Part shown: in pieces, positions 7,701-63,535 of the stretch
Position numbering within the stretch: position 1 is the first letter of the stretch
How the letters are laid out: each line of letters starts with the position of its first letter
From: Pseudomonadota bacterium
Lineage (GTDB): Bacteria > Pseudomonadota > Gammaproteobacteria > Pseudomonadales > JADFDG01
Reading direction: 5' to 3'
Length of the DNA: 64,000 nucleotides
NCBI GenBank assembly: GCA_049324475.1
Contig: JBMOOO010000014.1
Location: forward strand, 6,986 to 70,985
Notes under the pieces: model-generated
What the model was told of the DNA's origin: nothing
The model's input: the letters and a program-made list of their open reading frames with translations, nothing else
Database searches by the model: none
Made by a program: the position numbers and the translations under genes

Positions 7701-7722
7701 GACCGACCTCCAGGAAGCCCCC

Positions 7723-9436: not shown

Positions 9437-9442
9437 GCCGGC

Positions 9443-11271: not shown

Positions 11272-11346
11272 GCGCGGGCGGCATCCGGACCGGTGCAGGA
11301 AGCGCCTATCCTGCCGCAGGCCACCGCCCGCGGCCAACCGGAACCG

Positions 11347-22716: not shown

Positions 22717-22739
22717 GGCCTCCGTCGTGGATTCGTTGG

Positions 22740-31269: not shown

Positions 31270-31389
31270 GCAGAGGCTGAGCGCCAAGGCTTGGAGGCCC
31301 GACAAGCCGCCCGTATAGTGCGAAAAAACGTCGGTCCGCCGTGCCCGGCAACCGCGATAACAACAAAGAACACTCGATGGAGCCTTCGA

Positions 31390-34035: not shown

Positions 34036-35178
34036 ATGCCATCGCCTCTGGACCGCGCCACCGAACTGCTGGGTACCGGCCGCCGCTTCCTGCGCAATGC
34101 CGTGCAGCGGCGTGCCAACCCGCACAAGTTCATCGAGAACAACCTCACGCCGCACGGCGAGATCCTGCGTGACGGCCTGCTCACGGTCCGGCACTACCCG
34201 CGGCTGGCCAATCCTTCGATTGCAGTGGAGGGCACCACGGTCCCGGTCAGTGGCCGGCAGCACCGGCTGCCGCTGGTGCTGGTACCACCCCTGGGCGTGC
34301 ACGCCTGGGTGTTCGACCTGCTGCGCGAACGCAGCATGGTCCGCTACTTCCTGGCACGCGGTTTCGACGTCTACCTGATCGACTGGGGTGCGCCCGGTGC
34401 CAACGATCACGACCTCGCGCTCGACACGTACGTGAATCGCTGGTTCCCGCAGGCGCTGGCCGCCATCCGCCGGCACAGCGGCCGGGACGATCTGTCCCTG
34501 CTCGGCTACTGCATGGGCGGCCTGCTGTCGCTGATGTACCTGGCCGCCAGCGGCGATCGCCACGTACGCAATCTCGCCACCATCGCCAGCCCCATCGACA
34601 TCCACGCCGGCGGTACCCGCGGCCGCGTACTGGAGGCGATCAGCAAACCGGCCATGGCGGTGCACGAGCGGCTGGGCATCCGGCTGGATTTCTTCGCCAA
34701 CCGCCATCGTTTCCACGTACCCGGCTGGATGCTGGCACTGGCGTTCCGCGCCACCAATCCGCCCGGCACGGTACGCGCCTACATCGACATGGTGCGCAAC
34801 CTGGCCGACACCGAATACATCACCGAGTACATGAGCATGGGCCAGTGGTTCACGGACATGCCCTACTACCCCGGCGGCGTGGTGCAGGACATGGCGGAAA
34901 AATTCGCGATCGCCAACCGCATGGCCGGCGGTCACATGGTGATCGGCGAAGCCGAACTCGACTTCGCCCGCATCGACTGCAACCTGATTGCCCTTGCCGG
35001 CGACAACGACCGCATCGTCGGCGTGGATGCCGCCAGGAAAATCCTCGACATCGTCGGCAGCCACGACAAGCAGTTCCTGGTCGGCCCCGGCGGCCATGCC
35101 GGCGTGTTTGCCGGCAGCCGTGCACCGGCGGAGGTCTGGCAACCGATCGCCGACTGGCTCAGCCCGCGCTCGGACTGA
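34036..35178 (+). CDS. alpha/beta hydrolase resembling class III PHA synthase PhaC (Cys nucleophile)
   Basis: In-frame ATG at 34036. FDVYLIDWGAP and the lipase-box variant LLGYCMGG (G-x-C-x-G-G) match PhaC. Candidate Asp (GDNDRIV) and His (GGHAGVF) residues are present. About 380 aa. Confidence 0.6.
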   Translation: MPSPLDRATELLGTGRRFLRNAVQRRANPHKFIENNLTPHGEILRDGLLTVRHYPRLANPSIAVEGTTVPVSGRQHRLPLVLVPPLGVHAWVFDLLRERSMVRYFLARGFDVYLIDWGAPGANDHDLALDTYVNRWFPQALAAIRRHSGRDDLSLLGYCMGGLLSLMYLAASGDRHVRNLATIASPIDIHAGGTRGRVLEAISKPAMAVHERLGIRLDFFANRHRFHVPGWMLALAFRATNPPGTVRAYIDMVRNLADTEYITEYMSMGQWFTDMPYYPGGVVQDMAEKFAIANRMAGGHMVIGEAELDFARIDCNLIALAGDNDRIVGVDAARKILDIVGSHDKQFLVGPGGHAGVFAGSRAPAEVWQPIADWLSPRSD

Positions 35179-37531
35179 GCCCGTCGCCGAACAGGCGCAT
35201 CAGCAGGTCATCCAGGTCGCCGGCGCGTACCGGCTTCGGCAGGTGCGCATCCATGCCGGCGGCCAGGCATTCGGCGCGATGTTCCGGCAGGGCGTCCGCC
35301 GTCACCGCCACGATCGGCACCCGGCCGCGACGCCGGCGCGCTTCTTCCTCGCGCACGCGCCGGGTCGCCTCCATGCCGTCCAGGCCCGGCAGGTTGCGGT
35401 CCATGAACAGCACGTCGTAGTCGCGCGCGCAGGCATAACGCATGGCTTCCTCGCCGGTGGCGACCATGTCCACTTCCAGGCCACGCCGCTCCAGCAGCCC
35501 GCGCAACACCAGCTGGTTCACCGGATTGTCCTCGCACACCAGGGCACGCCGGCCACGCCAGTGGTTCTCCGGCACGCCGTCGCGCGCCTCGCCCGGCAAC
35601 TGCACCGGCTGCAGCGGCAAGGACACGGTGAAGGTGCTGCCTTCGCCGATCCGGCTTTCCAGCGTGATATCGCCACCCATCAGCCTCGCCAGATCGCGGG
35701 CAATCGTGAGCCCGAGACCGGTACCGCCCCGGCCGCGCGCACCGCGGCCTCCCACCTGGTGGAAACTGTCGAACACCGCCTGCTGTTGCCCCGCCGGAAT
35801 GCCGATGCCGGTATCACGCACACGCAACAGCAGGCGCCGGCCGTCCGAGGAGGACTGTGCCAGCAGCGTCACCGAACCGTGGTCGGTGAACTTGACGGCG
35901 TTGCTCACCAGATTGAGCAGCATCTGCCGCAGGCGGACCGGATCGATGCTGACGGCTGTCGGCAGACCGTCCTCGCAACGGCTGGACAGCTCCAGGCGGC
36001 GCTGGGTGGCGACACCGCGGAAAGTGTCGATCACGCTCGCCATCAACGGCCTCAGTGCCACCGGTTGCGGCCGCAGCTCCACACGACCCGCCTCGAGCTT
36101 GGCAGTGTCGAGCACATCGTCGATCACCGTCACCAGCGAGTCTGCCGACTCCTGGATCGTCCGCAGCATGTCCTGTTGCTGCCGGCTGAGCTCACTGTCG
36201 CGCAACAATTCCACCATGCCGACGATGCCGTTCATGGGCGTGCGGATCTCGTGACTCATGTGCGCCAGGAACTGCGACTTGGCCTCGGCCCTCGCCTGCG
36301 CCACCGAGGCATGCTTCAGGGCGCTGTCACGCTCGATGTTCACGGCACGGATGCGATAGGCCAGCGCGAATGACATCAGCACCACTTCCGCCACCTGCCC
36401 GAACTTGATCGCATTCAGGAACGCGGCCAGCGGCGGCAACAGACCGTGATTGGCCATGATGGTGACCGTGGCGCCGACCATGGTCGCGCCCCAGGCCACG
36501 TTGTAATAGAACGCCGGCCGGTGCCCCTGCAGCGCCACCAGCGCACCGGCCAGCACCACGGTGGGAATGGCCAGCATGATCAGCGTGTCGACCGCGATCA
36601 CCAGCTCGCGCCCGTAGAAGAAGCAGGTCAGCAGCGCAAACGCGGCATACAGGACGAGCAGGCCCTGCATCACCCGGTGCAGCCATGGCAGACGCTCGCG
36701 GGTTTCCAGGAACACCATGGCAAACCACAGGGTCGAGGACGCCGCCGCGTACACCGCGAACGGAAAGGCCCGGTGCTTGAGCCAGACGTTGTCGCCCAGC
36801 GGCAGGTAATGCCAGCCGTCCACCGTGAGCACACACAGGAAGATGCTCATGATGCTCACGCAGTAGGCGAGGTAGCTCTGGTCCCGGATGGTGAAGAACA
36901 GGAACAGGTTGTAGATGAACAGCGTGGCCACCACCGCGCCGTACAGCACCAGCAGCAGCAGCTCGCCCTGGCGCCAGCCGGCCAGCGACAACGGCGTGTC
37001 CACCCGCAGCGGCACCACCATCGAGGACTGCGACCAGGTGCGCAGGTAATAGGTGGCTTCGTCGCCGGGCGCGAGCGTGAGTGCGAACACCGGCTGCTGC
37101 ACATCAATCACGCGATGCACGGACGGCGCCATCCGGCCCTGCGGCAGGAAGACGTGCACGGCGCCGTTCTTCAGCTGGAACAGGCGCGCGTCGTCCAGCG
37201 TGGGCTCGGCCACCACCAGATACAGCGCCTGGGACGTGTCGGTGTCGTTGGCCAGGGTGAAACGCTGCCACCAGGCAGAACGGGAAATACCCGGTGCCAA
37301 CGGCTCGTCATGCAAACGACGGAAACGGCCGCCGGCATCCGCCTGGAGAACGTCCTTCAGCGTCATCGTGCCGGCCGGATCCTCCAGCACGGCAACAGCC
37401 GCCGGAGCGATTTCCGGTTGCATCATGAGCGACGACACGGAAAGCACGGCCACATCGGCACGCGCGGCGGCACCGGCCAGCAACAGACCGGCCAGCAACA
37501 TGCCCCACCCGCGCACCCGACTCGATGCCAT
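35159..37531 (-). CDS. 7TMR-DISM hybrid sensor histidine kinase (DISMED2 periplasmic domain, 7 TM, HisKA, HATPase_c, REC)
   Basis: Start at MASSRVRGWGMLLAGLLLAGAAARA (37531) within track ORF 35159-38044. A periplasmic domain is followed by seven hydrophobic helices. The H-box reads FLAHMSHEIRTPMNGI, with N/G boxes (NAVKFT, DTGIGI, GGTGLGL). The C-terminal receiver reads ALVCEDNP...LFMDRNLPGLDG...KP. Its last 20 nt overlap the convergent PhaC-like gene. Confidence 0.85.
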   Translation of the reverse strand: MASSRVRGWGMLLAGLLLAGAAARADVAVLSVSSLMMQPEIAPAAVAVLEDPAGTMTLKDVLQADAGGRFRRLHDEPLAPGISRSAWWQRFTLANDTDTSQALYLVVAEPTLDDARLFQLKNGAVHVFLPQGRMAPSVHRVIDVQQPVFALTLAPGDEATYYLRTWSQSSMVVPLRVDTPLSLAGWRQGELLLLVLYGAVVATLFIYNLFLFFTIRDQSYLAYCVSIMSIFLCVLTVDGWHYLPLGDNVWLKHRAFPFAVYAAASSTLWFAMVFLETRERLPWLHRVMQGLLVLYAAFALLTCFFYGRELVIAVDTLIMLAIPTVVLAGALVALQGHRPAFYYNVAWGATMVGATVTIMANHGLLPPLAAFLNAIKFGQVAEVVLMSFALAYRIRAVNIERDSALKHASVAQARAEAKSQFLAHMSHEIRTPMNGIVGMVELLRDSELSRQQQDMLRTIQESADSLVTVIDDVLDTAKLEAGRVELRPQPVALRPLMASVIDTFRGVATQRRLELSSRCEDGLPTAVSIDPVRLRQMLLNLVSNAVKFTDHGSVTLLAQSSSDGRRLLLRVRDTGIGIPAGQQQAVFDSFHQVGGRGARGRGGTGLGLTIARDLARLMGGDITLESRIGEGSTFTVSLPLQPVQLPGEARDGVPENHWRGRRALVCEDNPVNQLVLRGLLERRGLEVDMVATGEEAMRYACARDYDVLFMDRNLPGLDGMEATRRVREEEARRRRGRVPIVAVTADALPEHRAECLAAGMDAHLPKPVRAGDLDDLLMRLFGDGLSPSAG

Positions 37532-37702
37532 CACCGGCTCTCCCTGCACAGCGGCCGACAACCGGGCGGTGACATTCCCGCCCGGCCGGAGTCCGACTAT
37601 AGCGCGGCCCGGCCCGCCTTCGGGCCGCGGGCATGACGTGCTATGGTTCCGGCCCGCGCGCATGCCCATGACAACAACACCCGGAACCGTCGGAGACCTT
37701 CC

Positions 37703-38725
37703 ATGCGACCCCTGCGTCCGCTCGCTGCCACACTGAGTGCCCTCGCCCTCGTCCTTGCTGCCACCGCCGCCCAGGCCACGGACCTGACAAAACGGTCGGT
37801 CTGCGTGTTCGACATCGTCGGTACCCATGGCGACCTGTTCAACGCCATGAAGGATTTCCGGATCGAGGCCATGAAGTGGGGCGTCGATCTCGAACTGCGT
37901 CCGTACACCAACGAGAAGATCGCCGCCGAGGACTACAAGGCCGGCCAGTGCGATGCCGCGGTGATGACGGGTCTGCGTGCCCGCACTTTCCTGCCCTATG
38001 CCGGCACCATCGATTCGGTCGGCAGCGTGCCCGACGTCAACCACATGCGGCTGCTGATGCAGGCACTGGCCGACCCCAAGAGCGCACCGAAACTGCGCAA
38101 CGGCCCGTTCGAGGTGGCCGGCATTGCCCCGCTGGGTGCCGCCTACATCTTCACCCGTGACAAGGCCGTGAACAGCCTGACCAAGGCCTCCGGCAAACGC
38201 GTGGCCGTACTCGACTACGATCCGTCACAGGCACGCATGGTGGCGCAGGTCGGCGCCTCGCCGGTGCCCTCCGACATCACCAACTTCGCCGGCAAGTTCA
38301 ACAACGGCTCGGTCGACATCATCGGTGCACCGCTGGCCGCCTACAAACCGCTGGAACTCTGGAAAGGCCTGGAGCCGAACGGCGGCATCATCAACTACCC
38401 GTTCGTGATGCTGTCCATGCAGTTCCTGATCCGTCACGAGAAGTTCGCCGGGACGCCGGACTTCTCGCAGAAATCGCGCGAATATTTCTACGCAAACTTT
38501 GACCGCATCCTGTCTGCGCTGGACAAGGCCGCGCAGGAAGTCCCGCAGAAATACTTCGTCGAGATCCCCGCCACCGACAAGGTCAAGTACGAAGCGCTGA
38601 TGCGCGACGCCCGCGTCCAGCTGCGCAACGAGGGCTATTACAACGGCGACATGCTGACCCTGCTGCGCAAGGTGCGCTGCAAGGTCGACTCCGCGCGCGG
38701 CGAATGCACCGACAAACTCGAATAA
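37703..38725 (+). CDS. periplasmic solute-binding-like protein, paralog 1 (family not recognised)
   Basis: ATG at 37703 with GGAG upstream. Signal peptide MRPLRPLAATLSALALVLAATAAQA. It shares blocks with 44159-45184 and 45241-46302: CVFDI.G.HGD, AAEDYKAGQCDA, GKRVAVLDYDP, GASPVPSDITNFAGKFNNGSVDII and LLRKVRCKVDSARGECTDKLE. Confidence 0.8.
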   Translation: MRPLRPLAATLSALALVLAATAAQATDLTKRSVCVFDIVGTHGDLFNAMKDFRIEAMKWGVDLELRPYTNEKIAAEDYKAGQCDAAVMTGLRARTFLPYAGTIDSVGSVPDVNHMRLLMQALADPKSAPKLRNGPFEVAGIAPLGAAYIFTRDKAVNSLTKASGKRVAVLDYDPSQARMVAQVGASPVPSDITNFAGKFNNGSVDIIGAPLAAYKPLELWKGLEPNGGIINYPFVMLSMQFLIRHEKFAGTPDFSQKSREYFYANFDRILSALDKAAQEVPQKYFVEIPATDKVKYEALMRDARVQLRNEGYYNGDMLTLLRKVRCKVDSARGECTDKLE

Positions 38726-38729
38726 GGCC

Positions 38730-39935
38730 TTGAACGCAGGGCGCCACACAGCGCTGCAGGAACTGGCCGGAGTCCTGGCCGGTACTGCGGCGCTCTGGCG
38801 CCCGGCGCCGTTCCACGACGACCCGCCCTGGGTCGTCCGCTTTCCCGCCCTGCGCGACGCCCTGCTGGCGCTCGACGACGCCGGCATCGACGCCCTCGAA
38901 CACGATCCGCAGCAACTGGCCGACCGGATCGCGCAGCACATACCGGAATTTGCCGGCCTGATGCCTCCGGCACTGCGCTGCCTGGACAGTCGCGAAATCC
39001 CGCTGCCGCTGGATCTGCCGGAAAGCCTCGGCCGCGACGTGCCCGGCCGCAAATGGCAGCAGACGCTGCACTTTGCCGCCGCCTGCGGCAGGCCGCAGGG
39101 CACGGTACTGGACTGGTGCTGCGGCAAGGCACACCTGGGACGCGTGCTGGCACGGCACTACGGCAACGCGGTGAGCGGCATCGAACGCAACGGTGCGCTG
39201 TGTGCGGCCGGCCGCGCGCTTGCACAGCGCGAACACCTGCCGGTGCAGTTGCACCAGGCCGACGTGCTGCGGCATCCGCCCGTGGACGTGCTGCGCGACA
39301 GCATGCATGCCGTGGCATTGCACGCCTGCGGCTACCTGCATCTGGCGCTGCTGGAGCAGGCTGCCGCAGCCGGCGTGCCGGCACTCGATCTCGCGCCCTG
39401 CTGCTATCACCTCACCGCCGACGAAAACTGGCAGCCGCTCAGCCGCGCACTGGCCGGCACGGCCCTGACGCTCAGCCGCGCGGAGCTGCGACTGGCCGTG
39501 CACGAGACCGCCACCGCCAGCGCACGCGTGACAACGCAAAGCCGTCGCCTTGCCTCATGGCGGCTGGGTTTCGACCGGCTGCAACGTACCCTGCGCGGCA
39601 TCGACGAATACCTGCCCACGCCGTCACGGCCGGCCCGCGTGCTGCGCGACGGCTTTGCCGCGTTCTGCCGGGACCTGGCCGCCCACCACCGGATCGCCCT
39701 GCCCGCAGGCACGGACTTCACGCACTGGGAGAACACCGGCAGGCAGCGGCTGGCACGGGTACGGCGCCTGGAGCTGGTACGGCATGCCGTGCGCCGGCCG
39801 CTGGAAATCCTGCTGGTGACGGACCGGGCCCTGTGGCTGGAGGATCACGGCTACGAGGTCTCGCTCCGGCTGTTCTGCCCACCCGGGCTGACGCCGCGCA
39901 ACCTGCTGGTCCGGGCCCGCCGGTCCGCCGCCTGA
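38730..39935 (+). CDS. class I SAM-dependent methyltransferase-like protein
   Basis: TTG start 4 nt after the preceding stop. GRKWQQTLHFAA...VLDWCCGKAHLGRVLA...SGIERN resembles the motif-I region of a methyltransferase family that I recall carrying W-C-x-G-K-G-H-L-G. The antisense ORFs 38583-39539 and 38638-39384 are Arg/Ala shadows. Confidence 0.6.
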   Translation: MNAGRHTALQELAGVLAGTAALWRPAPFHDDPPWVVRFPALRDALLALDDAGIDALEHDPQQLADRIAQHIPEFAGLMPPALRCLDSREIPLPLDLPESLGRDVPGRKWQQTLHFAAACGRPQGTVLDWCCGKAHLGRVLARHYGNAVSGIERNGALCAAGRALAQREHLPVQLHQADVLRHPPVDVLRDSMHAVALHACGYLHLALLEQAAAAGVPALDLAPCCYHLTADENWQPLSRALAGTALTLSRAELRLAVHETATASARVTTQSRRLASWRLGFDRLQRTLRGIDEYLPTPSRPARVLRDGFAAFCRDLAAHHRIALPAGTDFTHWENTGRQRLARVRRLELVRHAVRRPLEILLVTDRALWLEDHGYEVSLRLFCPPGLTPRNLLVRARRSAA

Positions 39936-40004
39936 TGCACCGGCTCGCGGCTCCGTGTAAATTTGGAACGTTAGTGCCACATTAAAAGAACAACAGGAGT
40001 CCCG

Positions 40005-41429
40005 ATGGCATCCGAGCACCCCGCCCGACCGGAACACGACCCGGCCCGACGCCGCCTGCTGGCCACGTCCATGGCCGGGCTGGCCCTGACCGCTGCCGGC
40101 AGCACCCTGCTGCCGGGCACGGTGCGCGCCGACGGCGCCACGACAGCGGCCGGTGCTGCCGGCGCCCGCTGGCAGAACTGGTCGGGAGGCCAGTCGGTGC
40201 AGCCGTCCGCCATCTTCTATCCGCAGAACGAGGCGGATCTGGCGCGTATTGTGAAAACGGCGGTGCCGCCGATCCGGCCTTTCGGCGGCAGCCACTCCTT
40301 TGCACCGCTGGTGCCGACACCGGGCACGCTGGTGTCGCTGGAGCAGATGACCGCACTCACCGCCCACGATCCCCGGGCACTCACCGCCACCTTCACCGGC
40401 GGCACCCGCATCGCCGTGGCCGGTGAAATGCTGGCCGCCATCGGTCAGAACTTCTTCAACGAGCCGGACATCAATCTGCAGTCGCTGGCCGGCGCCGTCA
40501 GCACCGCCACCCACGGCACCGGGCTCGGCCTGCAGTGTCTTTCTGCCTACGTGACACAGATGAAGCTGGTGCTGGCCGACGGCAGCGTGGTCACCTGCTC
40601 GATGGACAGGGACCGCGAGCTGTTCGAGGCCGCCCGCGTTTCCATGGGCACCATCGGCATCATCGCGGAGCTGACCTTCCGCAACATGGCCGCCTACAAG
40701 CTGCGCGAGGAAACACAGGTGATGGACATCGCCGAGGCGATGCAGCACATCGAGCAGCGCAGGAACACGGACCGTCATATCGAGTTCTTTGCCTTCCCGT
40801 ACGGCGGCAAGGCCGTGGTCAAGCGCATGAACATCACCACCGAGGCCGACACGCCGCCGGTAGAGGAAACCATCGACCAGAACCAGGCGCTGGAAATGGC
40901 CGCCGACATCGTGAAGGCCGCGCCGTTCACCAAGGGCGTGATCCAGAAGATCGTCGGCGCCTTCATCAGTGACGAGGTGCGGGTGGCACCGGCGCATCGC
41001 ATGTTCCCCAGTCCGCGCACCGTGCAGTTCAACGAGATGGAGTACACGGTACCGGCGGACCAGGGCATTGCCTGCCTGCAGGAAGTGATCGACACCATGC
41101 GCGCGCGCGACCTGCCGGTATTCTTCCCGATCGAGTACCGGTACGTGGCGGCGGATGATATCTGGATGAGTCCGTTCGGCGGACGCGCCGGTGCGTCCAT
41201 TTCCATCCACCAGTACGCACGCCAGGATTACCGGGAAGTGTTCGACGCGGTCGAACCGATCCTGAAAAAATACGAAGGCCGGCCGCACTGGGGCAAGCTG
41301 AACACGCTGACGGCAAAAGACCTGCACGCGCGCTATCCGCGCTTCGGCGATTTCCTCGCCGTGCGGAAACGGGTCGATCCGCAGGGTCGTTTCCTCAACA
41401 CCTACATGAAGACGCTGTTCGGCGCCTGA
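40005..41429 (+). CDS. FAD-linked oxidase of the D-arabinono-1,4-lactone / L-gulonolactone oxidase (ALO) family with Tat signal
   Basis: The N-terminus has a twin-arginine motif and an h-region (RRRLLATSMAGLALTAAGS...VRADG). It has a PCMH-type FAD domain (GGSHSF, ISTATHGTG-like STATHGTG) and an ALO C-terminal signature (GRPHWGKLN). Confidence 0.8.
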   Translation: MASEHPARPEHDPARRRLLATSMAGLALTAAGSTLLPGTVRADGATTAAGAAGARWQNWSGGQSVQPSAIFYPQNEADLARIVKTAVPPIRPFGGSHSFAPLVPTPGTLVSLEQMTALTAHDPRALTATFTGGTRIAVAGEMLAAIGQNFFNEPDINLQSLAGAVSTATHGTGLGLQCLSAYVTQMKLVLADGSVVTCSMDRDRELFEAARVSMGTIGIIAELTFRNMAAYKLREETQVMDIAEAMQHIEQRRNTDRHIEFFAFPYGGKAVVKRMNITTEADTPPVEETIDQNQALEMAADIVKAAPFTKGVIQKIVGAFISDEVRVAPAHRMFPSPRTVQFNEMEYTVPADQGIACLQEVIDTMRARDLPVFFPIEYRYVAADDIWMSPFGGRAGASISIHQYARQDYREVFDAVEPILKKYEGRPHWGKLNTLTAKDLHARYPRFGDFLAVRKRVDPQGRFLNTYMKTLFGA

Positions 41430-41436
41430 GCCTGCC

Positions 41437-42750
41437 ATGAAGAGACGGAAAGTGCTGATCGGTGCCGCCGCCGCGGCCGGCGTGGCCGCCACCGGCTGGC
41501 TGCTGCGGCCGGAAGACCGTGGCGCACCCCACGACGCCTGGTTCCGCAGCCTGAACGACCTGCTGCGGGCACAGGGCCCCGGCCGGCCGGTGCTGGTCGT
41601 AGACCTGGACCGGCTGGAGCGCAATTGCGCCCGGCTGCAGGAGACCGCCGCCGGTCACGGCAAGAAACTGCGTATCGTCGCCAAGTCGCTGCCGTCCCTG
41701 CCCATGCTGCAGCATGTGCTGGCGCGCACCGGCAGCAACCGCCTGATGAGTTTTCACCAGCCGTTCCTGAGCGCACTGGCTGCACAGGCGCCGGCATCCG
41801 ACCTGCTGCTGGGCAAACCCATGCCGGTACGCGCGGCGGAAACCTTCTACCGCCGGCTGGGCAACCAGGGCGGATTCGATCCCTCGCGGCAACTGCAGTG
41901 GCTGGTCGACAGCCACGAGCGGCTGCAGCAGTACGCGCAGCTGGCACGCAGCCTGGGCACGAAAATGCAGGTGAACGTCGAGATCGATGTCGGCCTGCAC
42001 CGCGGCGGCCTCGCCGTGCCGGAACAGCTCGACCCGCTGCTGGCGACCATGGCTGCCGATCCCGATCACCTGGTGTTTTCCGGTTTCATGGGCTATGACG
42101 CCCACGTCGGCAAGGTGCCGTCGATCCTCGAAAGCCGCGACACCTCGCTGGCCAGGGCCAATGCGGTGTATCGCGGTTTCATGGCGCGCGCGCAGGCACT
42201 GCGACCGGCGCTGGATACCGCGACGCTGACCCTCAACGGGGCTGGCAGCCCGACCTTCCGCCTGCACGATGCGCAGTCGCCGCTGAACGAGATCTCGGTG
42301 GGCTCGGCGCTGGTGAAACCGTCCGATTTCGACCTGGAGCCGCTGGCGGATTTCGAACCGGCGGCGTTCATCGCCACACCCGTGCTCAAGGCCATGGATG
42401 GATTGCGCCTGCCCGGCAGCGACCTGATCGGCAATACCTGGGCCATGTGGGACCGCAATCGCCGCCGCACCTTTTTCATCTACGGCGGCAAGTGGATGGC
42501 GCATTTCGTATCGCCACCCGGGCTGGCCGACAACACGCTGTACGGCAGCAGTTCCAACCAGGCCATTGCCAACGCGTCGCCCGCCGTGGAACTCGCTGTC
42601 GACGACTACGTTTTCCTGCGTCCGACCCAGAGCGAAGCCGTGCTGCTGCAGTTCGGCGATCTCGTGGCCGTGCGTGGCACCGGTACACCGGAAGGTGCAC
42701 GCATCGAGGCCTGGTGGCCGGTGCTGGCGCCGGCCCACGAAACCGCGTGA
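41437..42750 (+). CDS. alanine-racemase-fold (fold-type III) PLP enzyme, DSD1/D-threonine-aldolase-like, with Tat-like N-terminus
   Basis: Starts 7 nt after the oxidase. The N-terminus is MKRRKVLIGAAAAAGVAATGWLL. VLVVDLDRLERNCARL...KLRIVAKS carries the candidate PLP lysine. Later motifs are EIDVGLHRGG and GFMGYDAH. Confidence 0.65.
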   Translation: MKRRKVLIGAAAAAGVAATGWLLRPEDRGAPHDAWFRSLNDLLRAQGPGRPVLVVDLDRLERNCARLQETAAGHGKKLRIVAKSLPSLPMLQHVLARTGSNRLMSFHQPFLSALAAQAPASDLLLGKPMPVRAAETFYRRLGNQGGFDPSRQLQWLVDSHERLQQYAQLARSLGTKMQVNVEIDVGLHRGGLAVPEQLDPLLATMAADPDHLVFSGFMGYDAHVGKVPSILESRDTSLARANAVYRGFMARAQALRPALDTATLTLNGAGSPTFRLHDAQSPLNEISVGSALVKPSDFDLEPLADFEPAAFIATPVLKAMDGLRLPGSDLIGNTWAMWDRNRRRTFFIYGGKWMAHFVSPPGLADNTLYGSSSNQAIANASPAVELAVDDYVFLRPTQSEAVLLQFGDLVAVRGTGTPEGARIEAWWPVLAPAHETA

Positions 42751-43745
42751 GTCACTGGCCGCTGTTCGAGCGCTTTCCGGCGCTGCAGGCCACGCTGGCC
42801 CCGCTGCCGTTGTGCGGGCTGCCAACGCCGGTGCAGGCCATGCCGGCCATTGCCGGCCATGCCTGGATCAAGCGCGACGATCTCACCCACCCGGAATACG
42901 GCGGCAACAAACTGCGCAAGCTGGAGTTCATTGCCGGCGAAATGCGTGCACGCGGAGCACGCCGCGTGTACACCTTCGGCGCCACCGGTACCAATGCCGG
43001 CGTGGCCGCCGCCATGGTCTGCAGACAGCTCGGCATTGCCTGCACCGTGCTGACCTTCGACCAGCCGGCATCGGCCACGGTGGCGAAAAACCGGCAACTG
43101 ATGGATCACTACGGCGCGCACCGCGTGCATACCGGTTCCCTGTTCGCCACGGCACTGGCCTGGTACGTGCACCCGCGGCGACTCGACCCGCACAGTTACT
43201 TCCTGTTCGCCGGCTGCTCCAACCCGGTCGCCACCTTCGGCCACGTCAACGCCGCCTTTGAACTGAAAACACAGATCGCACGCGGCGAATGCCCGGAACC
43301 GGAAGAGATCGTGGTCGCGGCCGGCAGCGCCGCCACGCTCGCCGGCCTCACCCTGGGCTGCCGGCTGGCCGGCCTGCGCAGCCGCGTGACCGGCATCCGG
43401 GTGGCACCGGCACGGGTCGGCCCTTTCGCGGCCTGCACACCGGGCGTGGTGACCGCCATGATGCGGCGCGCAGCGCAGACCCTCGCCCGGGCCTGCCCGG
43501 AGGAAACGCTGCCGCCATGGCCGGATGTGGAACTGCGCGACGACTGGTACGGGCCCGGTTACGGCGTCACCACGCCGGCCGCCGACCTGGCCATCGCCCG
43601 GGCCGCCGCCGCCGGCATTCCCCTGGAGCAGACCTACAGCGGCAAGGCGTTTGCCGCGTTCCTCGATCACCTCGACCGCACCCGCGGGCCGGTACTGTTC
43701 TGGAATACGTACAGCTCCCGGCCGTCGCCCGCGCTGCAGGACTGA
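42747..43745 (+). CDS. ACC deaminase / D-cysteine desulfhydrase-family (fold-type II) PLP enzyme
   Basis: The GTG start overlaps the upstream stop (GTGA). The hallmark motif is KRDDLTHPEYGGNKLRKLEF. No signal peptide. Confidence 0.75.
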   Translation: MSHWPLFERFPALQATLAPLPLCGLPTPVQAMPAIAGHAWIKRDDLTHPEYGGNKLRKLEFIAGEMRARGARRVYTFGATGTNAGVAAAMVCRQLGIACTVLTFDQPASATVAKNRQLMDHYGAHRVHTGSLFATALAWYVHPRRLDPHSYFLFAGCSNPVATFGHVNAAFELKTQIARGECPEPEEIVVAAGSAATLAGLTLGCRLAGLRSRVTGIRVAPARVGPFAACTPGVVTAMMRRAAQTLARACPEETLPPWPDVELRDDWYGPGYGVTTPAADLAIARAAAAGIPLEQTYSGKAFAAFLDHLDRTRGPVLFWNTYSSRPSPALQD

Positions 43746-43816
43746 TCCCGGTCAAGGTGCCCTTCCCCCGCCATGCCGACCATAGGAGCCGGTCATACAC
43801 GCGGAGGGATCACACC

Positions 43817-43996
43817 ATGGAATTCGTACTGGCAGACCTGTTCGGCTCCCTGGGCGGCCTGCTCACGCTCTTCATCGTCCTGTTCTGCATCGCCGCCATC
43901 CCGGCAGGCATTTACTTCGCGATGAAGAATGCCGTGCAGCTGTCCGCCGAACAGGACCGCATCAACGCGGAGAAGCACCGGCGGCAGGCACCCTGA
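43817..43996 (+). CDS. small single-TM membrane protein (59 aa)
   Basis: ATG at 43817 preceded by GGAGGG. One hydrophobic helix (LGGLLTLFIVLFCIAAIPAGIYF) and a basic tail. Confidence 0.45.
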   Translation: MEFVLADLFGSLGGLLTLFIVLFCIAAIPAGIYFAMKNAVQLSAEQDRINAEKHRRQAP

Positions 43997-44158
43997 GGGG
44001 CCGCCGGGGGACCGGCGCCCCGTCCGGGGCCTGAGGGGGCATTTACCGCAAAGGCCATGACCGGCGGGCGAATCGGTCATGGACCGGGGGCAGGGGTTGC
44101 GGAACAGTAGGCGGTCCGGGTCTACCCGCAGAACAACAACCCCCGCCGAGGCTCCCCG

Positions 44159-45184
44159 ATGCGTCTGTTCGCCCTGCCAGCTCTCCTGCTGTCCGCCCTG
44201 CTGTTCTCCACCGGCTCCGGTGCCGCGGACCAGCAGGTACCCGCCAATGTGGTCAAGCGGAAGTTCTGCGTGTTCGATATCGCCGGCGCGCACGGTGACA
44301 TCTACCGCACCATGCAGGACTACCGGCTGGAGATGCTCAAGCACGGGGTCGATTTCGAGCTGGTGCCCTACACCAGCGAGAAGATTGCCGCCGAGGACTT
44401 CAAGGCCGGCCTGTGCGATGCCGCCGACCTGACCTCGTTCCGTATCCGCAACTTCATCAAGTTTGCCGGCACTGTCGACGCGGTCGGCGCACTGCCGACC
44501 CGCGAGCACGTACGCCTGGCACTGCAGGCCCTGGCCCATCCCAGCATGGCGCCGAAGCTGAAGAGCGGCCCGTATGAGATCGCCGGCATCGTGCCGATCG
44601 GCGCGGCCTACGTGTTCAGCCGCGACCGCCGCATCGACACCATCACCAAGGCTGCCGGCAAGCGCGTGGCCGTACTCGACTACGACCCGGAGATGGCAAA
44701 GATGGTGTCGCGCCTCGGCGCCTCGCCGGTGCCCTCCGACATCACCAACTTCGCCGGCAAATTCAACAACGGTTCGGTCGACATCATCGTGGCACCGATC
44801 GCTGCCTACAAACCCCTGGAACTGTACAAGGGCCTGGAGCCGAGCGGCGGCATCATCGATTTCCCCTTCACCCAGCTCTCCGCCATGGTGATCGTGCGCA
44901 GCGAGAAATTCCCGCCGGACATGCTGCAGTTCGCCCGCGAGGAAATCTTCCGCAACCTCGACCGCATCTACGAAATTGTCGACCGCATGGGCACCGATGT
45001 GCCGAAGAAGTACTGGGTCCCGATTCCGGAAGCGGACAAGGGCAAGTATGAAATCCTGATGCGCGACACCCGCATCCAGCTGCGCGAAACCGGCTACTAC
45101 GACGGCGAGGCCCTGACCCTGCTGCGCAAGGTGCGCTGCAAGGTCGAGCCGGCCCGCGCGGAGTGCACCGACAAGACCGAGTAG
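44159..45184 (+). CDS. periplasmic solute-binding-like protein, paralog 2
   Basis: 341 aa. Signal peptide MRLFALPALLLSALLFSTGSGA. It has the same conserved blocks as 37703-38725, including a 73-nt stretch differing at only 2 positions. Confidence 0.8.
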   Translation: MRLFALPALLLSALLFSTGSGAADQQVPANVVKRKFCVFDIAGAHGDIYRTMQDYRLEMLKHGVDFELVPYTSEKIAAEDFKAGLCDAADLTSFRIRNFIKFAGTVDAVGALPTREHVRLALQALAHPSMAPKLKSGPYEIAGIVPIGAAYVFSRDRRIDTITKAAGKRVAVLDYDPEMAKMVSRLGASPVPSDITNFAGKFNNGSVDIIVAPIAAYKPLELYKGLEPSGGIIDFPFTQLSAMVIVRSEKFPPDMLQFAREEIFRNLDRIYEIVDRMGTDVPKKYWVPIPEADKGKYEILMRDTRIQLRETGYYDGEALTLLRKVRCKVEPARAECTDKTE

Positions 45185-45240
45185 GCACCCCATCCCGGAA
45201 ATCCTTTCCGGAATCCCGAAACGGCCACTGGAGAACAACA

Positions 45241-46302
45241 ATGAAAAGACTGCTGGCTGCCCTTGCCCTGACCGCGTTTGCCACCACGGCGGGCGCGGCC
45301 GACATCAAGGCCGAAGACTTCATCTCTGCACCCGGCGTGAAAGCGCCGGCCCCGGTCAGCGGCCCTCCGCTCAAACGCAAGGTCTGTGTCTGGGACATCG
45401 CCGGTGCCAACGGTGACCTGTTCCGGACCATGGCCGACCTGCGCATCGGCATCCTGCGCTACGGCATCGACCTGGAGCTGCTGCCCTACACCAGCGAGCG
45501 GGTCGCCGCCGAGGACTTCAAGGCCGGCCAGTGCGATGCGGTCAACCTGATGACACTGCGTGCGCGGAACTTCATCAAGTTCTCCGGATCCCTGGATGCG
45601 ATCGGCGCCCTGCCGACCCGCGAGCACCTGCGCCTGGCCCTGACCGCACTGGCCGATCCGCGCATGGCTCCGAAGCTGAAAAGCGGCCCGTATGAAGTGG
45701 CCGCGTTCATCCCGATCGGCGCGGCCTACATCTTCACCAATGACCGCAGCGTGACGTCGATCGCCAAGGCCTCGGGCAAACGCATCGCCGTGCTCGACTA
45801 CGATCCGACCATGTCGAAGATGATCGCCGGTATCGGCGCCTCACCGGTGCCTTCCGACGTCACCAACTTCGCCGGCAAGTTCAACAACGGCTCGGTCGAC
45901 ATCATTGCCGCGCCGCTGGCCGCCTACAGCCCGTTCGAGCTGTACAAGGGGCTGGAACCGCGCGGAGGGATCGTCGATTTCCCGTTCACCCAGCTGACCG
46001 CGCAGGTGCTGGTGCGCAGCGACAAGTTCCCGGCCGAGATGCTGCAGTACTCGCGCACGGTGGTGGCCCGCCACTTTGAGTCGACCATGGAAATCGTGGA
46101 CGCGATGTCCGGCGAAATTCCGGCCAAGTACTGGATCAAGATCCCGAAGACCGACCAACTGCGCTATGAGCTGATGATGCGGGAAGCCCGCGTCCAGCTG
46201 CGCGAGGAAGGCTATTACGACGGCGACATGCTGGCCCTGCTGCGCAAGATCCGCTGCAAGCTGGATTCCGGCCGCGGCGAGTGCACCGACAAGCAGGAGT
46301 AA
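45241..46302 (+). CDS. periplasmic solute-binding-like protein, paralog 3
   Basis: ATG at 45241 preceded by GGAG. Signal peptide MKRLLAALALTAFATTAGA. It has the same conserved blocks and ends LLRKIRCKLDSGRGECTDKQE. Confidence 0.8.
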   Translation: MKRLLAALALTAFATTAGAADIKAEDFISAPGVKAPAPVSGPPLKRKVCVWDIAGANGDLFRTMADLRIGILRYGIDLELLPYTSERVAAEDFKAGQCDAVNLMTLRARNFIKFSGSLDAIGALPTREHLRLALTALADPRMAPKLKSGPYEVAAFIPIGAAYIFTNDRSVTSIAKASGKRIAVLDYDPTMSKMIAGIGASPVPSDVTNFAGKFNNGSVDIIAAPLAAYSPFELYKGLEPRGGIVDFPFTQLTAQVLVRSDKFPAEMLQYSRTVVARHFESTMEIVDAMSGEIPAKYWIKIPKTDQLRYELMMREARVQLREEGYYDGDMLALLRKIRCKLDSGRGECTDKQE

Positions 46303-46312
46303 CCCCCTGCCG

Positions 46313-46348
46313 AACGAAAACGCCGCCTTCGGGCGGCGTTTTCGTTTC
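46313..46348. terminator. strong hairpin between convergent genes (bidirectional terminator candidate)
   Basis: CGAAAACGCCGCC-TTCG-GGCGGCGTTTTCG is extended by A/T pairs and followed by TTTCC. It lies between the stop at 46302 (+) and the stop at 46387 (-). Confidence 0.7.
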
Positions 46349-46386: not shown

Positions 46387-47358
46387 CTACCGTTTTTTCT
46401 TGCCGTGCAGCGGAATCACGTCGACCGGATGATCGGCGGAACGGCCGACATGCTTGTGGATGAAACGACCGATCTCGCGCACCGCCTCCTTGCCTTCCGG
46501 GATGAAATACGCCAGCGCCTGGAACACGTGCATCATGCCCGGATACACCGTCAGCTTGACCGGAATGCGCGCCTTCTTCGCCGCCGCCTCGACCCGTTCG
46601 GCATCCGACAACAGCACTTCGTTGCCGCCCACCTGGATCAGCAACGGCGGAAATCCGCTGTAGTCGCCGTAGATCGGCGACAGGAACGGATCGTGCGGCG
46701 AATGCTCGCCGGCATAGACCCGCGCCAGGAATTTCAGCACATTCACCGGAATGTAGGGCTCGTGGCGTGCGTTCTCCCGCAGCGAATCACCGGTGGCGGT
46801 GAGATCGGCCCAGGGTGAAATCAGCACGGCACCGGCCGGCAGCGGCAGGCCCAGCTCGCGGAATTTCAGCATGGACACCAGCGTCAGGTTGCCGCCGGCG
46901 CTGTCGCCGCCGATGAAGATGTTCTGCGGCTCGTAGCCGCGGGCCAGCAGCCAGCGATACACACGCACCACGTCCCAGATCGGTGCCGGGTATTCGTGGT
47001 CCGGCGGCTGCCGGTAATCCACCGCCAGCACTTTCATGCGGCCGGCCTGGGAGATGCGCCAGGTCAGCGTGCGGTGCGAACGCGGCGAACCGAAGAAATA
47101 GCCACCGCCATGCAGATAGATGAACACGCGATCCTGGTGCAGTTCGTCCGCACACACCACCCATTCGCAGGGCACGTCGCCGGCGTGTACGGGAATGATC
47201 TCGGCATTGCGCGGCACCGGCAGCACCATGGTCAGGGCATCAAACCCGAGCTGCGAGAATTTCATCAGGCGCGGCGTGAACTTCACCCGCGCGATCACCG
47301 GTTTCACGAAAGTACGCGCGGCCAGGTTCAGGGCCTGCGCCTGCCAGCTGGTGGTCAT
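46387..47358 (-). CDS. alpha/beta hydrolase, hormone-sensitive-lipase-type esterase/lipase
   Basis: Oxyanion motif YLHGGGYFFGSP and nucleophile GGDSAGGN. I prefer the ATG at 47358 (GGAG 8-11 nt upstream) to the track start at 47391. Confidence 0.8.
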   Translation of the reverse strand: MTTSWQAQALNLAARTFVKPVIARVKFTPRLMKFSQLGFDALTMVLPVPRNAEIIPVHAGDVPCEWVVCADELHQDRVFIYLHGGGYFFGSPRSHRTLTWRISQAGRMKVLAVDYRQPPDHEYPAPIWDVVRVYRWLLARGYEPQNIFIGGDSAGGNLTLVSMLKFRELGLPLPAGAVLISPWADLTATGDSLRENARHEPYIPVNVLKFLARVYAGEHSPHDPFLSPIYGDYSGFPPLLIQVGGNEVLLSDAERVEAAAKKARIPVKLTVYPGMMHVFQALAYFIPEGKEAVREIGRFIHKHVGRSADHPVDVIPLHGKKKR

Positions 47359-47412
47359 CCGGTCTGCTCCGTGTTCTTGTTGTTCTGGCATGAGGGTCCG
47401 CCACCGGCGAGT

Positions 47413-48735
47413 CTACAACCGGGTCAGCGTCACCGGCAGCCCGTCGCGCGGCTTCGCGATCGGCACCAGCTGGTAAGGCATGCGGTAGTGGCGCGGTACG
47501 CTCCAGCGGTAGCGCAGCAGGACCTGGTGCAGGATGGCCTTGACCTGCAGGTCGGCGAAATGCTGGCCGATGCACATATGGGCGCCGCCGCCGAAAGGCA
47601 CCCAGGCATACGGGTGGCGCTTGTGCTCATCGCGGCCAGGCGCAAACCGTTCGGGATCAAAGCGGAACGGTTGTGACCAGATCTCTTCCATGTGGTGGGT
47701 GTGGATCGGTGCCAGCCCGATCTGGGTATGGGCGGGAATGCGGTAACCCATGAATTCGAATTCACGGGTCGCGTAGCGCGGCATCACCGGCAGTGGCGGG
47801 TAACGGCGCAGCGCTTCCTTCATGGTCCAGCCCAGTGCCGCCAGCTTTTCCAGATCGTCGAATTCCAGTCCGTCCCGCGCCAGCGCCCGCGACTCCTCGC
47901 GCAGGCGTTCCTGCCAGGCCGGCTCCTGCCCGAGCGCGTAGAACATGGTGGTCAAGGTGGACGTGGTGGTGTCATGCGCCGCCATCATCAGGAATGCCAT
48001 GTGATCGACGATCTCGTCGTCGGTGTAGCGTTCACCGGATTCACTGACGGCATGGCAGAACGCGCTGAAGAAATCCGGTGTTTCGCGCGCGCGCTTTCCC
48101 GGCAGCAGACCGTGGAAGGTGCGCACCAGATGCTCGCGGCCGCGCAGGCCGCGCCGGTACAGCGTGCCTGGCAGGTCGAAGCGCACCGCTGCAATGGAAC
48201 CTTCCACCGTATCGATGAAGGCCTGGTTCAGGCGCGTGGCCTCGACACCCGGCTCGATGCCCATGAACACCCGCGAGGCAAGATCCAGCGTGAGCTGCTT
48301 GACCGCCGGGAACACGCGGAAATCGCTGCCGCTCTGCCAGGCACGCAAGCCGTCGGCGATGTGCCCGTTCATGTGTCCCAGGTAGGTGACCAGCGCCGGC
48401 TTCTTGAACGCGTGGTTCATGATCCGGCGCTGGAAGCGGTGCTCCTCGCCGTCCATGGTCATGATCGCGCCCGGGAATACGTGATCGATCACCCAGCCCC
48501 AGCCCAGGCGCGAGGAAAAGATCTCGTCGCGGTTCTGCAGCACCAGCTGGTTGGCCTCGGGCCCGAACAGCGCCACGCTGGACAGCTTGCCCCAGCCGCT
48601 GCGCACCACCGGACCGTTGCGCCGGTACAGCTCGCGGGTGGTGGCGCCGATGTCACGATAGAAACCGACGAAGTACTGGAACGGCCAGGAACCGTTGTCG
48701 TGGGGAATCCGGTGATCGGCGGCCAGCGTGGTCAT
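47413..48735 (-). CDS. cytochrome P450 monooxygenase
   Basis: Start at MTTLAADHRIP (48735). Heme-thiolate loop FGGGAHMCIGQHFA, I-helix MMAAHDTTTS and EALRRYPP (ExxR). Confidence 0.88.
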   Translation of the reverse strand: MTTLAADHRIPHDNGSWPFQYFVGFYRDIGATTRELYRRNGPVVRSGWGKLSSVALFGPEANQLVLQNRDEIFSSRLGWGWVIDHVFPGAIMTMDGEEHRFQRRIMNHAFKKPALVTYLGHMNGHIADGLRAWQSGSDFRVFPAVKQLTLDLASRVFMGIEPGVEATRLNQAFIDTVEGSIAAVRFDLPGTLYRRGLRGREHLVRTFHGLLPGKRARETPDFFSAFCHAVSESGERYTDDEIVDHMAFLMMAAHDTTTSTLTTMFYALGQEPAWQERLREESRALARDGLEFDDLEKLAALGWTMKEALRRYPPLPVMPRYATREFEFMGYRIPAHTQIGLAPIHTHHMEEIWSQPFRFDPERFAPGRDEHKRHPYAWVPFGGGAHMCIGQHFADLQVKAILHQVLLRYRWSVPRHYRMPYQLVPIAKPRDGLPVTLTRL

Positions 48736-48786
48736 CGGTACCTCTGCAGGGCGGCGGAAACGGGCACGTTGACCGCAGTCTGCCAT

Positions 48787-48797
48787 TGGTATGACCA
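48787..48797. promoter_or_regulatory. candidate GntR/FadR-type operator 1
   Basis: TGGTATGACCA (TGGT-N3-ACCA palindrome) lies in the P450/phyH divergent spacer and is followed by a half-site, TTTGGTCACC. Confidence 0.5.
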
Positions 48798-48862
48798 TTT
48801 GGTCACCCGCCGATCGTCTTCCGACCGGCTGCACTGGCCGCGGGCGCCTGTCACGGGCAGAG

Positions 48863-48873
48863 TGGTCTGACCA
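48863..48873. promoter_or_regulatory. candidate GntR/FadR-type operator 2
   Basis: TGGTCTGACCA is a second perfect TGGT-N3-ACCA palindrome, 14 nt upstream of the phyH-like ATG. Confidence 0.5.
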
Positions 48874-48886
48874 ATAACGCGGATCA

Positions 48887-57063: not shown

Positions 57064-57178
57064 ACCGGCGCCGGGCACGGCGATTGACGCGGTGTTTCCC
57101 GCGCCGGGTGGCGACGCCCCCGCATGACCCGTCCCCGGACTCCTGTGCTATGTTGGCCCCTCATTCCGGGAGTCCTGC

Positions 57179-57865: not shown

Positions 57866-57875
57866 CACCGTTTCC

Positions 57876-58943: not shown

Positions 58944-58974
58944 TCGCGGCCTGCCAACCACCGGGAGCCCCGCC

Positions 58975-59172: not shown

Positions 59173-59180
59173 GCCGGGCC

Positions 59181-62760: not shown

Positions 62761-62772
62761 GGCGACAATTCC

Positions 62773-63519: not shown

Positions 63520-63535
63520 CGAGGCTGCTCCCGGA

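Follow-up and report, generated by a model that had tools for sequence, protein, structure and literature searches.

Orphan AdeT-family binding proteins, probably of a divergent TRAP-type system, in a mosaic gammaproteobacterial locus

Background

Why would a bacterium encode three paralogous, exported solute-binding proteins (SBPs) in one gene run with no transporter nearby? The question is raised by a 64-kb stretch of contig JBMOOO010000014.1 (assembly GCA_049324475.1) from a Pseudomonadota bacterium, the whole of which we call the window. Its central run of genes encodes three proteins of the AdeT family (AdeT_a, AdeT_b and AdeT_c), with enzymes between them and a divergently oriented hybrid sensor kinase upstream. 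Gene coordinates and translations were taken from a list of open reading frames (ORFs). We consider it moderately probable that the three proteins are orphan binding proteins of a divergent tripartite ATP-independent periplasmic (TRAP)-type system whose permease is encoded elsewhere, and that their genes lie in a lineage-specific mosaic of separate modules.

Results

AdeT family and fold

The three proteins are encoded as follows.

AdeT_a, 37703..38725, + strand: PF19582 (AdeT1_2), 305.1 bits; Sec signal peptide; orphan SBP.
AdeT_b, 44159..45184, + strand: PF19582, 305.3 bits; modelled with AlphaFold; orphan SBP.
AdeT_c, 45241..46302, + strand: PF19582, 303.3 bits; orphan SBP, sister of AdeT_b in a neighbor-joining (NJ) tree.

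PF19582 matched each of them with an E-value of about 1e-90 (gathering cut-off, 27 bits), and approximately positions 106-391 of its 394-position profile were covered. Pairwise identity among the three is 57-63%, and each carries a Sec-type signal peptide. An earlier reading of the DNA, referred to here as the original prediction, had described them as paralogous periplasmic SBPs, which agrees with this identity, these signals, the PF19582 assignment and the DctP-type fold described below. Its view that the paralog family could not be assigned was overturned by hidden Markov model (HMM) and structure searches, which returned a defined family with a TRAP DctP-type fold. The motif blocks that it listed occur in all three paralogs, with the correction that the gap in RCK......ECTDK is six residues long, not four. 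PF19582 is the former DUF6091 and carries the names of AdeT1 and AdeT2 of Acinetobacter baumannii; its curators treat it as uncharacterised, with no established function, and place it nearest to DctP-type TRAP/periplasmic binding protein (PBP) families (PMC11467057).

There is no solved structure for the family, and a sequence search of the PDB returned one weak DctP match (4paf). AdeT_b was modelled with AlphaFold2 from an alignment of 60 sequences, with a pLDDT of 90.5 and a pTM of 0.84. When this model was compared with the PDB using Foldseek, the top 50 matches were all DctP-type TRAP SBPs, with E-values down to 9e-16 and query-normalised TM-scores of approximately 0.6-0.7. The NCBIfam model NF037995 (TRAP_S1) scored the AdeT proteins at 36.5-41 bits, under its cut-off of 50, and Pfam DctP did not match the AdeT proteins of the window. 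Because a profile of the AdeT alignment found nothing under E = 0.01 among PDB sequences, the TRAP fold assignment rests on structure comparison. Judging from the modelled fold, AdeT1_2/DUF6091 is predicted to be a divergent branch of the DctP-type TRAP SBPs.

HMM alignments to 4paf and 5i5p were used as two independent alignments for locating the carboxylate-binding arginine of DctP proteins. In the AdeT family this column is occupied by the near-invariant alanine of GKRVAVLD (A171 in AdeT_b numbering). The carboxylate-clamping arginine is the residue that we take to be equivalent to R147 of SiaP, in the motif G-x-K-x-R. The sequence replacement points to a ligand, or a way of binding it, that departs from the classical one, and because the clamping arginine is replaced, the ligands of AdeT proteins need not be carboxylates. 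Four cysteines are invariant or nearly so in the family, which would be consistent with a disulfide-bonded periplasmic protein. Other arginines are invariant, among them R95, R97, R260, R305 and R326 of AdeT_b.

AdeT loci and the DctM-domain permease

The AdeT alignment was scanned against one genome per species, which yielded 79 loci in other genomes, distributed among Alcanivoracaceae, Ketobacteraceae, Moraxellaceae, Limnobacter and unclassified Gammaproteobacteria. Neighboring ORFs were clustered, and gene context was then mapped and counted by tblastn over 88 loci plus the window, with 148 AdeT copies in all. The tblastn counts were used because longest-ORF calling in high-GC loci gave antisense artefact clusters (c3, c18 and c21).

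A membrane protein of 700-790 amino acids (aa) is encoded directly after AdeT in 34 of the 148 copies, and in 32 of these 34 a lipoprotein of approximately 350 aa precedes AdeT. The lipoprotein of this triad has no Pfam family. All six of the triad membrane proteins tested scored above the Pfam DctM gathering score, the match spanned almost the whole profile in four of five membrane proteins of one test set, and an N-terminal extension of approximately 250 aa lies ahead of the DctM domain. That 34 of 148 copies stand before a DctM-passing membrane protein indicates, at the level of sequence, that the PF19582 family possesses a dedicated TRAP-type permease. The AdeT copies outside triads are orphans, often in tandem arrays; one form consists of arrays just upstream of a triad in Alcanivorax, and another of single genes beside AraC and acyl-CoA dehydrogenase genes.

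Four metagenome-assembled genomes (MAGs) with a window-type cluster also hold all three triad genes, on another contig of the same whole-genome shotgun (WGS) set.

Triad L012: same WGS set as cluster locus L003.
Triad L017: same WGS set as cluster locus L008.
Triad L027: same WGS set as cluster loci L005 and L011.
Triad L035: same WGS set as cluster locus L010.

In the NJ tree, a simple distance tree, triad-linked and orphan AdeT proteins formed separate clades, and the window proteins fell among the orphans, with AdeT_b and AdeT_c as sisters.

Within the window, Pfam scans covering the long ORFs with high GC content at third codon positions (GC3), though not every ORF, found no DctQ or DctM gene and no SBP-dependent importer, TRAP membrane subunit or outer-membrane receptor, and tblastn with the triad permeases gave no match. 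The sole transporter genes found in the window scans lie at 60901-63546 and form an exporter-type pair that is ABC-2/GldG-like. These searches bear out the original prediction in finding no transporter nearby. It had also named two circumstances that would tell against its interpretation. The first, a well-characterised family with a partner transporter encoded elsewhere, is largely what was found, as the family is defined, though uncharacterised, and relatives carry the AdeT-linked DctM triad on another contig; the second, a gene set not conserved as a neighborhood and transcribed independently, is taken up below.

In Alcanivorax (L036, L042, L044, L047, L051 and L068, at about 1500-11500), three tandem orphan AdeT genes lie directly upstream of the triad, in the order short-chain dehydrogenase/reductase (SDR), three AdeT genes, divergent ABC1/UbiB-type kinase, lipoprotein, AdeT, DctM-domain permease and PilZ protein. 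ABC1 kinase and PilZ genes accompany the triad in several lineages. The window itself encodes a paralog of the triad lipoprotein (1601-2746, + strand; 47-53% identical; no Pfam or NCBIfam family), which sits alone between a von Willebrand factor A (VWA)/YfbK gene and a zinc alcohol dehydrogenase gene. Like AdeT, the triad lipoprotein thus has a duplicated orphan copy.

Gene run of the window

Eight co-directional + strand genes occupy 37703-46302, with computed gaps of 4, 69, 7, -4, 71, 162 and 56 nt between successive genes. ORFs, folding and Pfam scans reproduced the gene coordinates, the junctions and the terminal hairpin of the original prediction, and likewise its statement that no importer lies nearby. 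Besides the three AdeT genes, the locus contains the following features.

35159..37531, - strand: 7TMR-DISM hybrid histidine kinase with signal peptide, 7TMR-DISMED2, seven transmembrane (TM) segments, HisKA, HATPase_c and REC (Pfam).
37532..37702, no strand: divergent spacer of 171 nt, in which the blocks GAGTCCGACTATA and TGCTATGGTT are conserved among kinase-bearing relatives (alignment).
38730..39935, + strand: cytoplasmic Methyltransf_32 S-adenosylmethionine-dependent methyltransferase (MT32; Pfam), with a TTG start 4 nt past the AdeT_a stop.
39964..39979, no strand: near-palindrome TGGAACGTTAGTGCCA, candidate operator, upstream of the oxidase gene and recurring in relatives.
40005..41429, + strand: flavin adenine dinucleotide (FAD)-linked oxidoreductase of VAO/ALO type with a twin-arginine translocation (Tat) signal (FAD_binding_4 and ALO; TIGR01679).
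41437..42750, + strand: DSD1-type fold-III pyridoxal phosphate (PLP) enzyme with a twin-arginine N-terminus (Pfam Ala_racemase_N), related to D-threonine aldolase and D-3-hydroxyaspartate aldolase.
42747..43745, + strand: fold-II PLP enzyme (PALP) of the D-cysteine desulfhydrase/1-aminocyclopropane-1-carboxylate (ACC) deaminase group, with a GTG start and a 4-nt overlap with the preceding stop.
43817..43996, + strand: 59-aa single-TM peptide, with homologues in L003, L091 and L007.
43991..44082, no strand: GC-rich hairpin with 17-nt arms, and a 9-bp palindrome CCATGACCG-N10-CGGTCATGG.
46313..46348, no strand: strong hairpin between convergent genes (-41.5 kcal/mol, z = -3.6).

Gene content of related loci

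Nine related versions of the locus were compared, and 74 further AdeT loci lie outside this close clade. The related loci have common flanks, with an HNH endonuclease gene upstream and esterase, cytochrome P450, PhyH and GntR genes downstream. AdeT_a is the only gene kept in all nine versions. The gene order of the window is also found in L001, L008 and L091; compositions of related loci are as follows.

L005: AdeT_a and MT32 only; AdeT_b and AdeT_c on another contig, L011.
L010: AdeT_a, MT32 and AdeT_b.
L007: AdeT_a, small peptide and AdeT_b.
L004: AdeT_a, MT32, CsoR-like, rhodanese, TauE and metallo-beta-lactamase genes, and AdeT_b.
L008: AdeT_a, MT32, oxidase, DSD1 and PALP; kinase absent.
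L003: full set without PALP.
L091: full set, interrupted ahead of AdeT_b by genes for a CitMHS transporter and a protease; the kinase is broken up into three ORFs.

The original prediction had interpreted the cluster as a periplasmic sensing or processing module. Neighborhood analysis does not agree with such a unit, since even close relatives differ in which modules of the gene set they carry, and none of MT32, the oxidase, DSD1, PALP and the 7TMR-DISM kinase occurs near AdeT in the 74 more distant loci. In L004 the slot of oxidase, DSD1 and PALP (7385-9878) is filled by a sulfur-handling set of genes for a CsoR-like repressor, a rhodanese, a TauE sulfite exporter and a metallo-beta-lactamase-fold protein.

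When L004 is compared with the window, the interval between MT32 and AdeT_b behaves like an insertion hot spot. In L091, which comes from a Joint Genome Institute (JGI) metagenome, the kinase occupies three ORFs at 7384-9741, and the methyltransferase is present as ORFs of 318 aa and 50 aa at 11149-12292; these split genes reflect either decay or assembly errors. AdeT_a and MT32 were also considered as a conserved pair, which was rejected on account of the absence of MT32 from all 74 distant loci and of lone MT32 genes in Halomonas and Vibrio.

Enzymes and small peptide

The oxidase scored 446.1 bits with TIGR01679, over the cut-off of 292.25, and fell under that of TIGR01678 (sugar-1,4-lactone oxidase; 194.8 versus 396.8). 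Its nearest solved structures are the alditol/glycerol oxidases 8ot8 and 2vfr (E = 3e-48; PMC10771423). Its N-terminus (PARRRLLATSMAGLALTAAG...VRA/DG) is a classical Tat signal, as originally predicted, and both the RR motif and the AxA site are kept in homologues. The DSD1-type enzyme begins with MKRRKVLIGAAAAAGVAATGWLLRP; in 12 of 13 homologues M[KQ]RRxFLxG leads into a stretch of 12-16 hydrophobic residues, and an AxA site is not apparent in this enzyme. From these N-termini, export or Tat anchoring of both the oxidase and the DSD1-type enzyme is probable.

With Ala_racemase_N the DSD1-type enzyme scored 70 bits against a cut-off of 24, and with the BhcC equivalog model 50 bits against 690. 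Its relatives in the PDB are the D-threonine aldolase 7yqa (E = 1.3e-11) and 6qkb, and its orthologues (55-67% identity) occur in Alcanivoracaceae, Moraxellaceae and Burkholderiaceae. The DSD1 gene lies directly 3' of an ALO-type oxidase gene in all contexts examined, including L086-L088, where the other cluster genes are missing. The stand-alone pair is carried by Alloalcanivorax gelatiniphagus (Alcanivoracaceae) and by another gammaproteobacterial MAG. By gene context, then, the oxidase/DSD1 pair behaves as an independent conserved unit. As a two-gene unit it spans 40005-42750 in the window, 6583-9290 in L086 and 6628-9281 in L088. It would be plausible that the pair oxidises a D-configured hydroxy or amino compound in the periplasm and then cleaves it in a PLP-dependent reaction. 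The pairing of an FAD oxidase with a probably periplasmic PLP enzyme is unusual.

The PALP enzyme scored 118 bits with the PALP domain (cut-off, 35) and 130.7 bits with TIGR01275, under the cut-off of 289.4; its nearest solved structure is D-cysteine desulfhydrase 4d8t (E = 1.8e-28), and it has no signal peptide. It is missing from L003 and from the oxidase/DSD1 pairs of Alcanivoracaceae. MT32 orthologues with 39-47% identity occur in Halomonas, Vibrio, Motiliproteus and Gallionellaceae, and those of Halomonas and Vibrio are found on their own, in unrelated housekeeping contexts. The ORF of the 59-aa peptide is genuine; the peptide has no Pfam or NCBIfam match, and its homologues lie upstream of AdeT_b with or without a PALP gene.

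Hybrid kinase

The kinase scored 96.7 bits with PF07696 (7TMR-DISMED2) and 128.5 bits with PF07695 (7TMR-DISM 7TM). It has the features of the 7TMR-DISM class, an extracytoplasmic domain and a 7-TM module fused to a transmitter, and lacks an Hpt domain. Among the window ORFs that were scanned, which were not all of them, there is no stand-alone response regulator or Hpt protein, so that the original description of a 7TMR-DISM hybrid kinase without a partner regulator was upheld by the Pfam domains. The gene lies upstream of AdeT_a in four of the nine related versions (window, L001/L009, L003 and L091) and is absent from the other five (L004, L005, L007, L008 and L010). Adjacency of SBP and kinase genes is not conserved beyond them, as no kinase adjoins AdeT in the 74 distant loci. 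A metagenome scan with the kinase returned just unrelated hybrid kinases, 35-46% identical over residues ~300-790 (transmitter/receiver); its patterns had been back-translated from the generic transmitter and receiver core, and the scan is uninformative.

Non-coding signals and transcription units

The terminal hairpin at 46313-46348 has a near-perfect stem of 15-16 bp, a UUCG loop and a U-rich tail, and is a probable bidirectional intrinsic terminator. Upstream of the oxidase gene, TGGNAC-N4-G[T/G]NCCA occurs in the window (39964-39979), L001 (6076), L008 (2876) and L091 (12312), with perfect symmetry in L008, and Alloalcanivorax L088 has a related sequence upstream of its oxidase gene. This near-palindrome is a candidate operator of a separate transcription unit. 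A sigma-54 promoter was considered for TGGAAC...TGCCA and rejected, as the GG-to-GC spacing is 9 nt, not 10, and the element is palindromic in L008. At 43991-44082 a hairpin lies directly 3' of the 59-aa ORF, and the perfect 9-bp palindrome falls within the 162-nt spacer before AdeT_b. A sigma-70 consensus promoter scan, which included the spacer between the kinase and AdeT_a, found nothing, and neither did an Rfam scan of the whole window. Because of the near-palindrome, the hairpin and palindrome, the conserved spacer blocks and the junction lengths, about three putative transcription units are suggested: AdeT_a-MT32, oxidase-DSD1-PALP-(peptide) and AdeT_b-AdeT_c.

Surroundings

Lipid and hydrocarbon genes occupy several stretches of the window (5178-7700, 13099-16027, 21568-23888, 46387-49693 and 56311-60389). 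They encode a PlsB-type acyltransferase, thiolase, SDR, fatty-acid desaturase and reductase, esterase, cytochrome P450, PhyH dioxygenase, acyltransferase, START protein, patatin and CoA-transferase. This density fits a relative of oil-degrading Gammaproteobacteria. Two + strand genes have no Pfam family (31291-32664, 457 aa; 51197-53074, 625 aa); genes of like length and position, also without a Pfam match, are found in related MAGs, with 421-456 aa upstream and 628-652 aa downstream.

Discussion

We favor, with moderate confidence, an explanation in which the binding-protein genes multiplied without a matching multiplication of the permease. AdeT_a, AdeT_b and AdeT_c would capture different but related periplasmic ligands and hand them over to a DctM-type permease encoded at a distance. 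MT32, a cytoplasmic enzyme conserved in many lineages, would simply happen to be syntenic with AdeT_a in this clade, and the oxidase/DSD1 unit, joined by the D-cysteine-desulfhydrase-like PLP enzyme, would have been inserted between AdeT_a/MT32 and AdeT_b. The 7TMR-DISM hybrid kinase would be a further lineage-specific insertion that came and went. This account builds on what was demonstrated above: the family and fold of the proteins, the permease context and its occurrence in relatives, a gene content that varies by module, and oxidase/DSD1 and MT32 genes that each occur independently. Docking of the orphans on a distant permease is inferred by analogy with the family of tripartite tricarboxylate transporters (TTT), where orphan binding proteins share few membrane units (PMC5812351).

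Several points weigh against this explanation. The pairing of TRAP SBPs with their permeases is usually specific, and the window orphans differ from triad-linked copies by 42-46%. The tree that separates the two carries no support values. The permease context was read in relatives, this organism being covered by the 64-kb window only. Each of the four related versions with AdeT_c also has the kinase, and the short junctions (4, 7 and -4 nt), with no internal T-tract terminator, fit co-transcription and shared function.

One rival is a dedicated catabolic operon, in which AdeT proteins capture a substrate, for instance an amino-polyol or an amino acid of the D-beta-hydroxy or thiol kind, that is processed by the periplasmic oxidase and DSD1 and then by cytoplasmic PALP and MT32. 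The eight co-directional genes with short or overlapping junctions and a single strong terminator at the end speak for it, as do the recurrence of the order in L001, L008 and L091, the membership of both PLP enzymes in D-amino-acid families and the proximity of the oxidase to alditol oxidases. However, in Alcanivoracaceae, as in another gammaproteobacterial MAG, oxidase and DSD1 occur without AdeT, MT32 or PALP, outside the close clade none of the 74 loci has the enzymes near AdeT, their slot in L004 is taken by a sulfur-detoxification set, L010 and L005 have none of the enzymes of that slot, and the operator-like motif and hairpin divide the run; we regard the operon as unlikely. Somewhat less credence is due to the idea, contained in the original prediction, of binding-protein-dependent sensing, in which one or more ligand-loaded AdeT proteins dock on the 7TMR-DISM kinase, in the manner of TorT on TorS, LuxP on LuxQ or BctC on BctE, and the kinase controls the divergent operon. 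Its appeal lies in the divergent arrangement of kinase and AdeT_a over a 171-nt spacer with conserved blocks, in the coincidence of kinase-bearing versions (window, L001/L009, L003 and L091) with those that have AdeT_c, and in the known signalling of an SBP through a kinase in the TTT family (BctC/BctE; PMC5812351). Against this, the kinase-less L004, L005, L007, L008 and L010 keep AdeT_a and some of them AdeT_b and the oxidase module, L091 retains the cluster (with MT32 also split) around a kinase in three ORFs, none of the 74 distant loci has a 7TMR-DISM kinase adjoining AdeT, the kinase has an extracytoplasmic ligand domain of its own (7TMR-DISMED2), and the scanned ORFs include no cognate regulator nearby. 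A sensing role via the kinase is thus improbable and, as matters stand, unsupported.

Alternatively, orphan AdeT proteins might work without any inner-membrane permease and, as soluble carriers or chaperones, escort molecules that are hydrophobic or derived from lipids. The family occurs mainly in hydrocarbon and lipid degraders (Alcanivoracaceae, Ketobacteraceae, Moraxellaceae and Limnobacter), its neighbors include acyl-CoA dehydrogenase, ABC1/UbiB-type kinase, SDR and START-domain genes, the window is rich in lipid-metabolism genes, about ten lipoprotein-AdeT pairs have no detectable permease gene nearby, and the canonical carboxylate-binding arginine is an alanine. Yet this reading is drawn from context alone, the fold and the triad context favor transport, and some of the permease-less cases lie at contig ends, which leaves it quite improbable. 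The literature annotation of AdeT as a membrane-fusion protein (MFP) or resistance-nodulation-division (RND)-type efflux component for drug resistance is hardly credible and was rejected on fold and gene context. Some database names do read 'RND type efflux pump', and AdeT1 has been described as an RND pump component; however, E. coli gained no resistance from wild-type AdeT1 (PMC7687900). The predicted fold is that of a TRAP SBP and not of a membrane-fusion protein, no RND or outer-membrane factor gene is among the scanned window ORFs, and the Pfam curators likewise group the family with TRAP/PBP proteins (PMC11467057).

The account of orphan AdeT proteins in a mosaic locus can be set beside known systems. 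DctP-type TRAP SBPs (SiaP, DctP, TarP and IseP) resemble AdeT in their two-lobed type II fold, long spanning helix and Sec signal, and, like canonical AdeT members, are encoded beside a DctM-domain permease. They differ in that identity is just 11-17%, AdeT falls below the TRAP_S1 cut-off, the arginine is replaced by alanine and four cysteines are present; the AdeT permease is 700-790 aa long, a lipoprotein takes the place of a recognisable DctQ, and the window copies have no adjacent permease. AdeT1 and AdeT2 of A. baumannii belong to the same Pfam family, PF19582, as the window proteins, but they are named as efflux parts, whereas the window proteins form part of a clade-specific orphan branch. 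The orphan Bug/TctC proteins of the TTT family show the same excess of SBP genes over membrane units, with orphans beside catabolic genes and not beside permeases, and their member BctC signals through a kinase (PMC5812351). They are of another family and fold subtype, and the AdeT expansion is modest in comparison, with three copies in the window and at most four in tandem elsewhere. In TorT-TorS and LuxP-LuxQ, as in the window, an SBP gene adjoins a hybrid sensor kinase gene; unlike those systems, the adjacency here is found in four of nine related and none of 74 distant loci, and the window sensor has a 7TMR-DISMED2 domain. Among solved structures, the oxidase comes closest to AldO (2vfr; 8ot8) and the DSD1-type enzyme to D-threonine aldolase/BhcC (7yqa and 6qkb); the window enzymes differ from these by their twin-arginine N-termini and their conserved gene pairing.

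Conclusions

The puzzle of transporter-less binding proteins in this locus is explained by comparative context. The finding also corrects the still frequent labelling of AdeT proteins as RND efflux components, as fold and context are those of TRAP-type SBPs with a DctM permease and a lipoprotein. A bolder proposal, which we hold to be improbable, is that AdeT1_2/DUF6091 represents a third, undescribed TRAP-like class of hydrocarbon-degrading Gammaproteobacteria, composed of lipoprotein, SBP and extended DctM permease and serving non-carboxylate, possibly lipid-derived substrates, whose expanded orphans, devoid of the carboxylate-binding arginine, would in this lineage have been recruited with the kinase and the oxidase/PLP pair into a periplasmic unit of capture, processing and sensing. 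The oxidase/DSD1 pair hints at an uncharacterised periplasmic reaction. The stronger leads are family-wide rather than specific to the window: the lipoprotein/AdeT/extended-DctM architecture, the lost arginine and the Tat oxidase/PLP pair.

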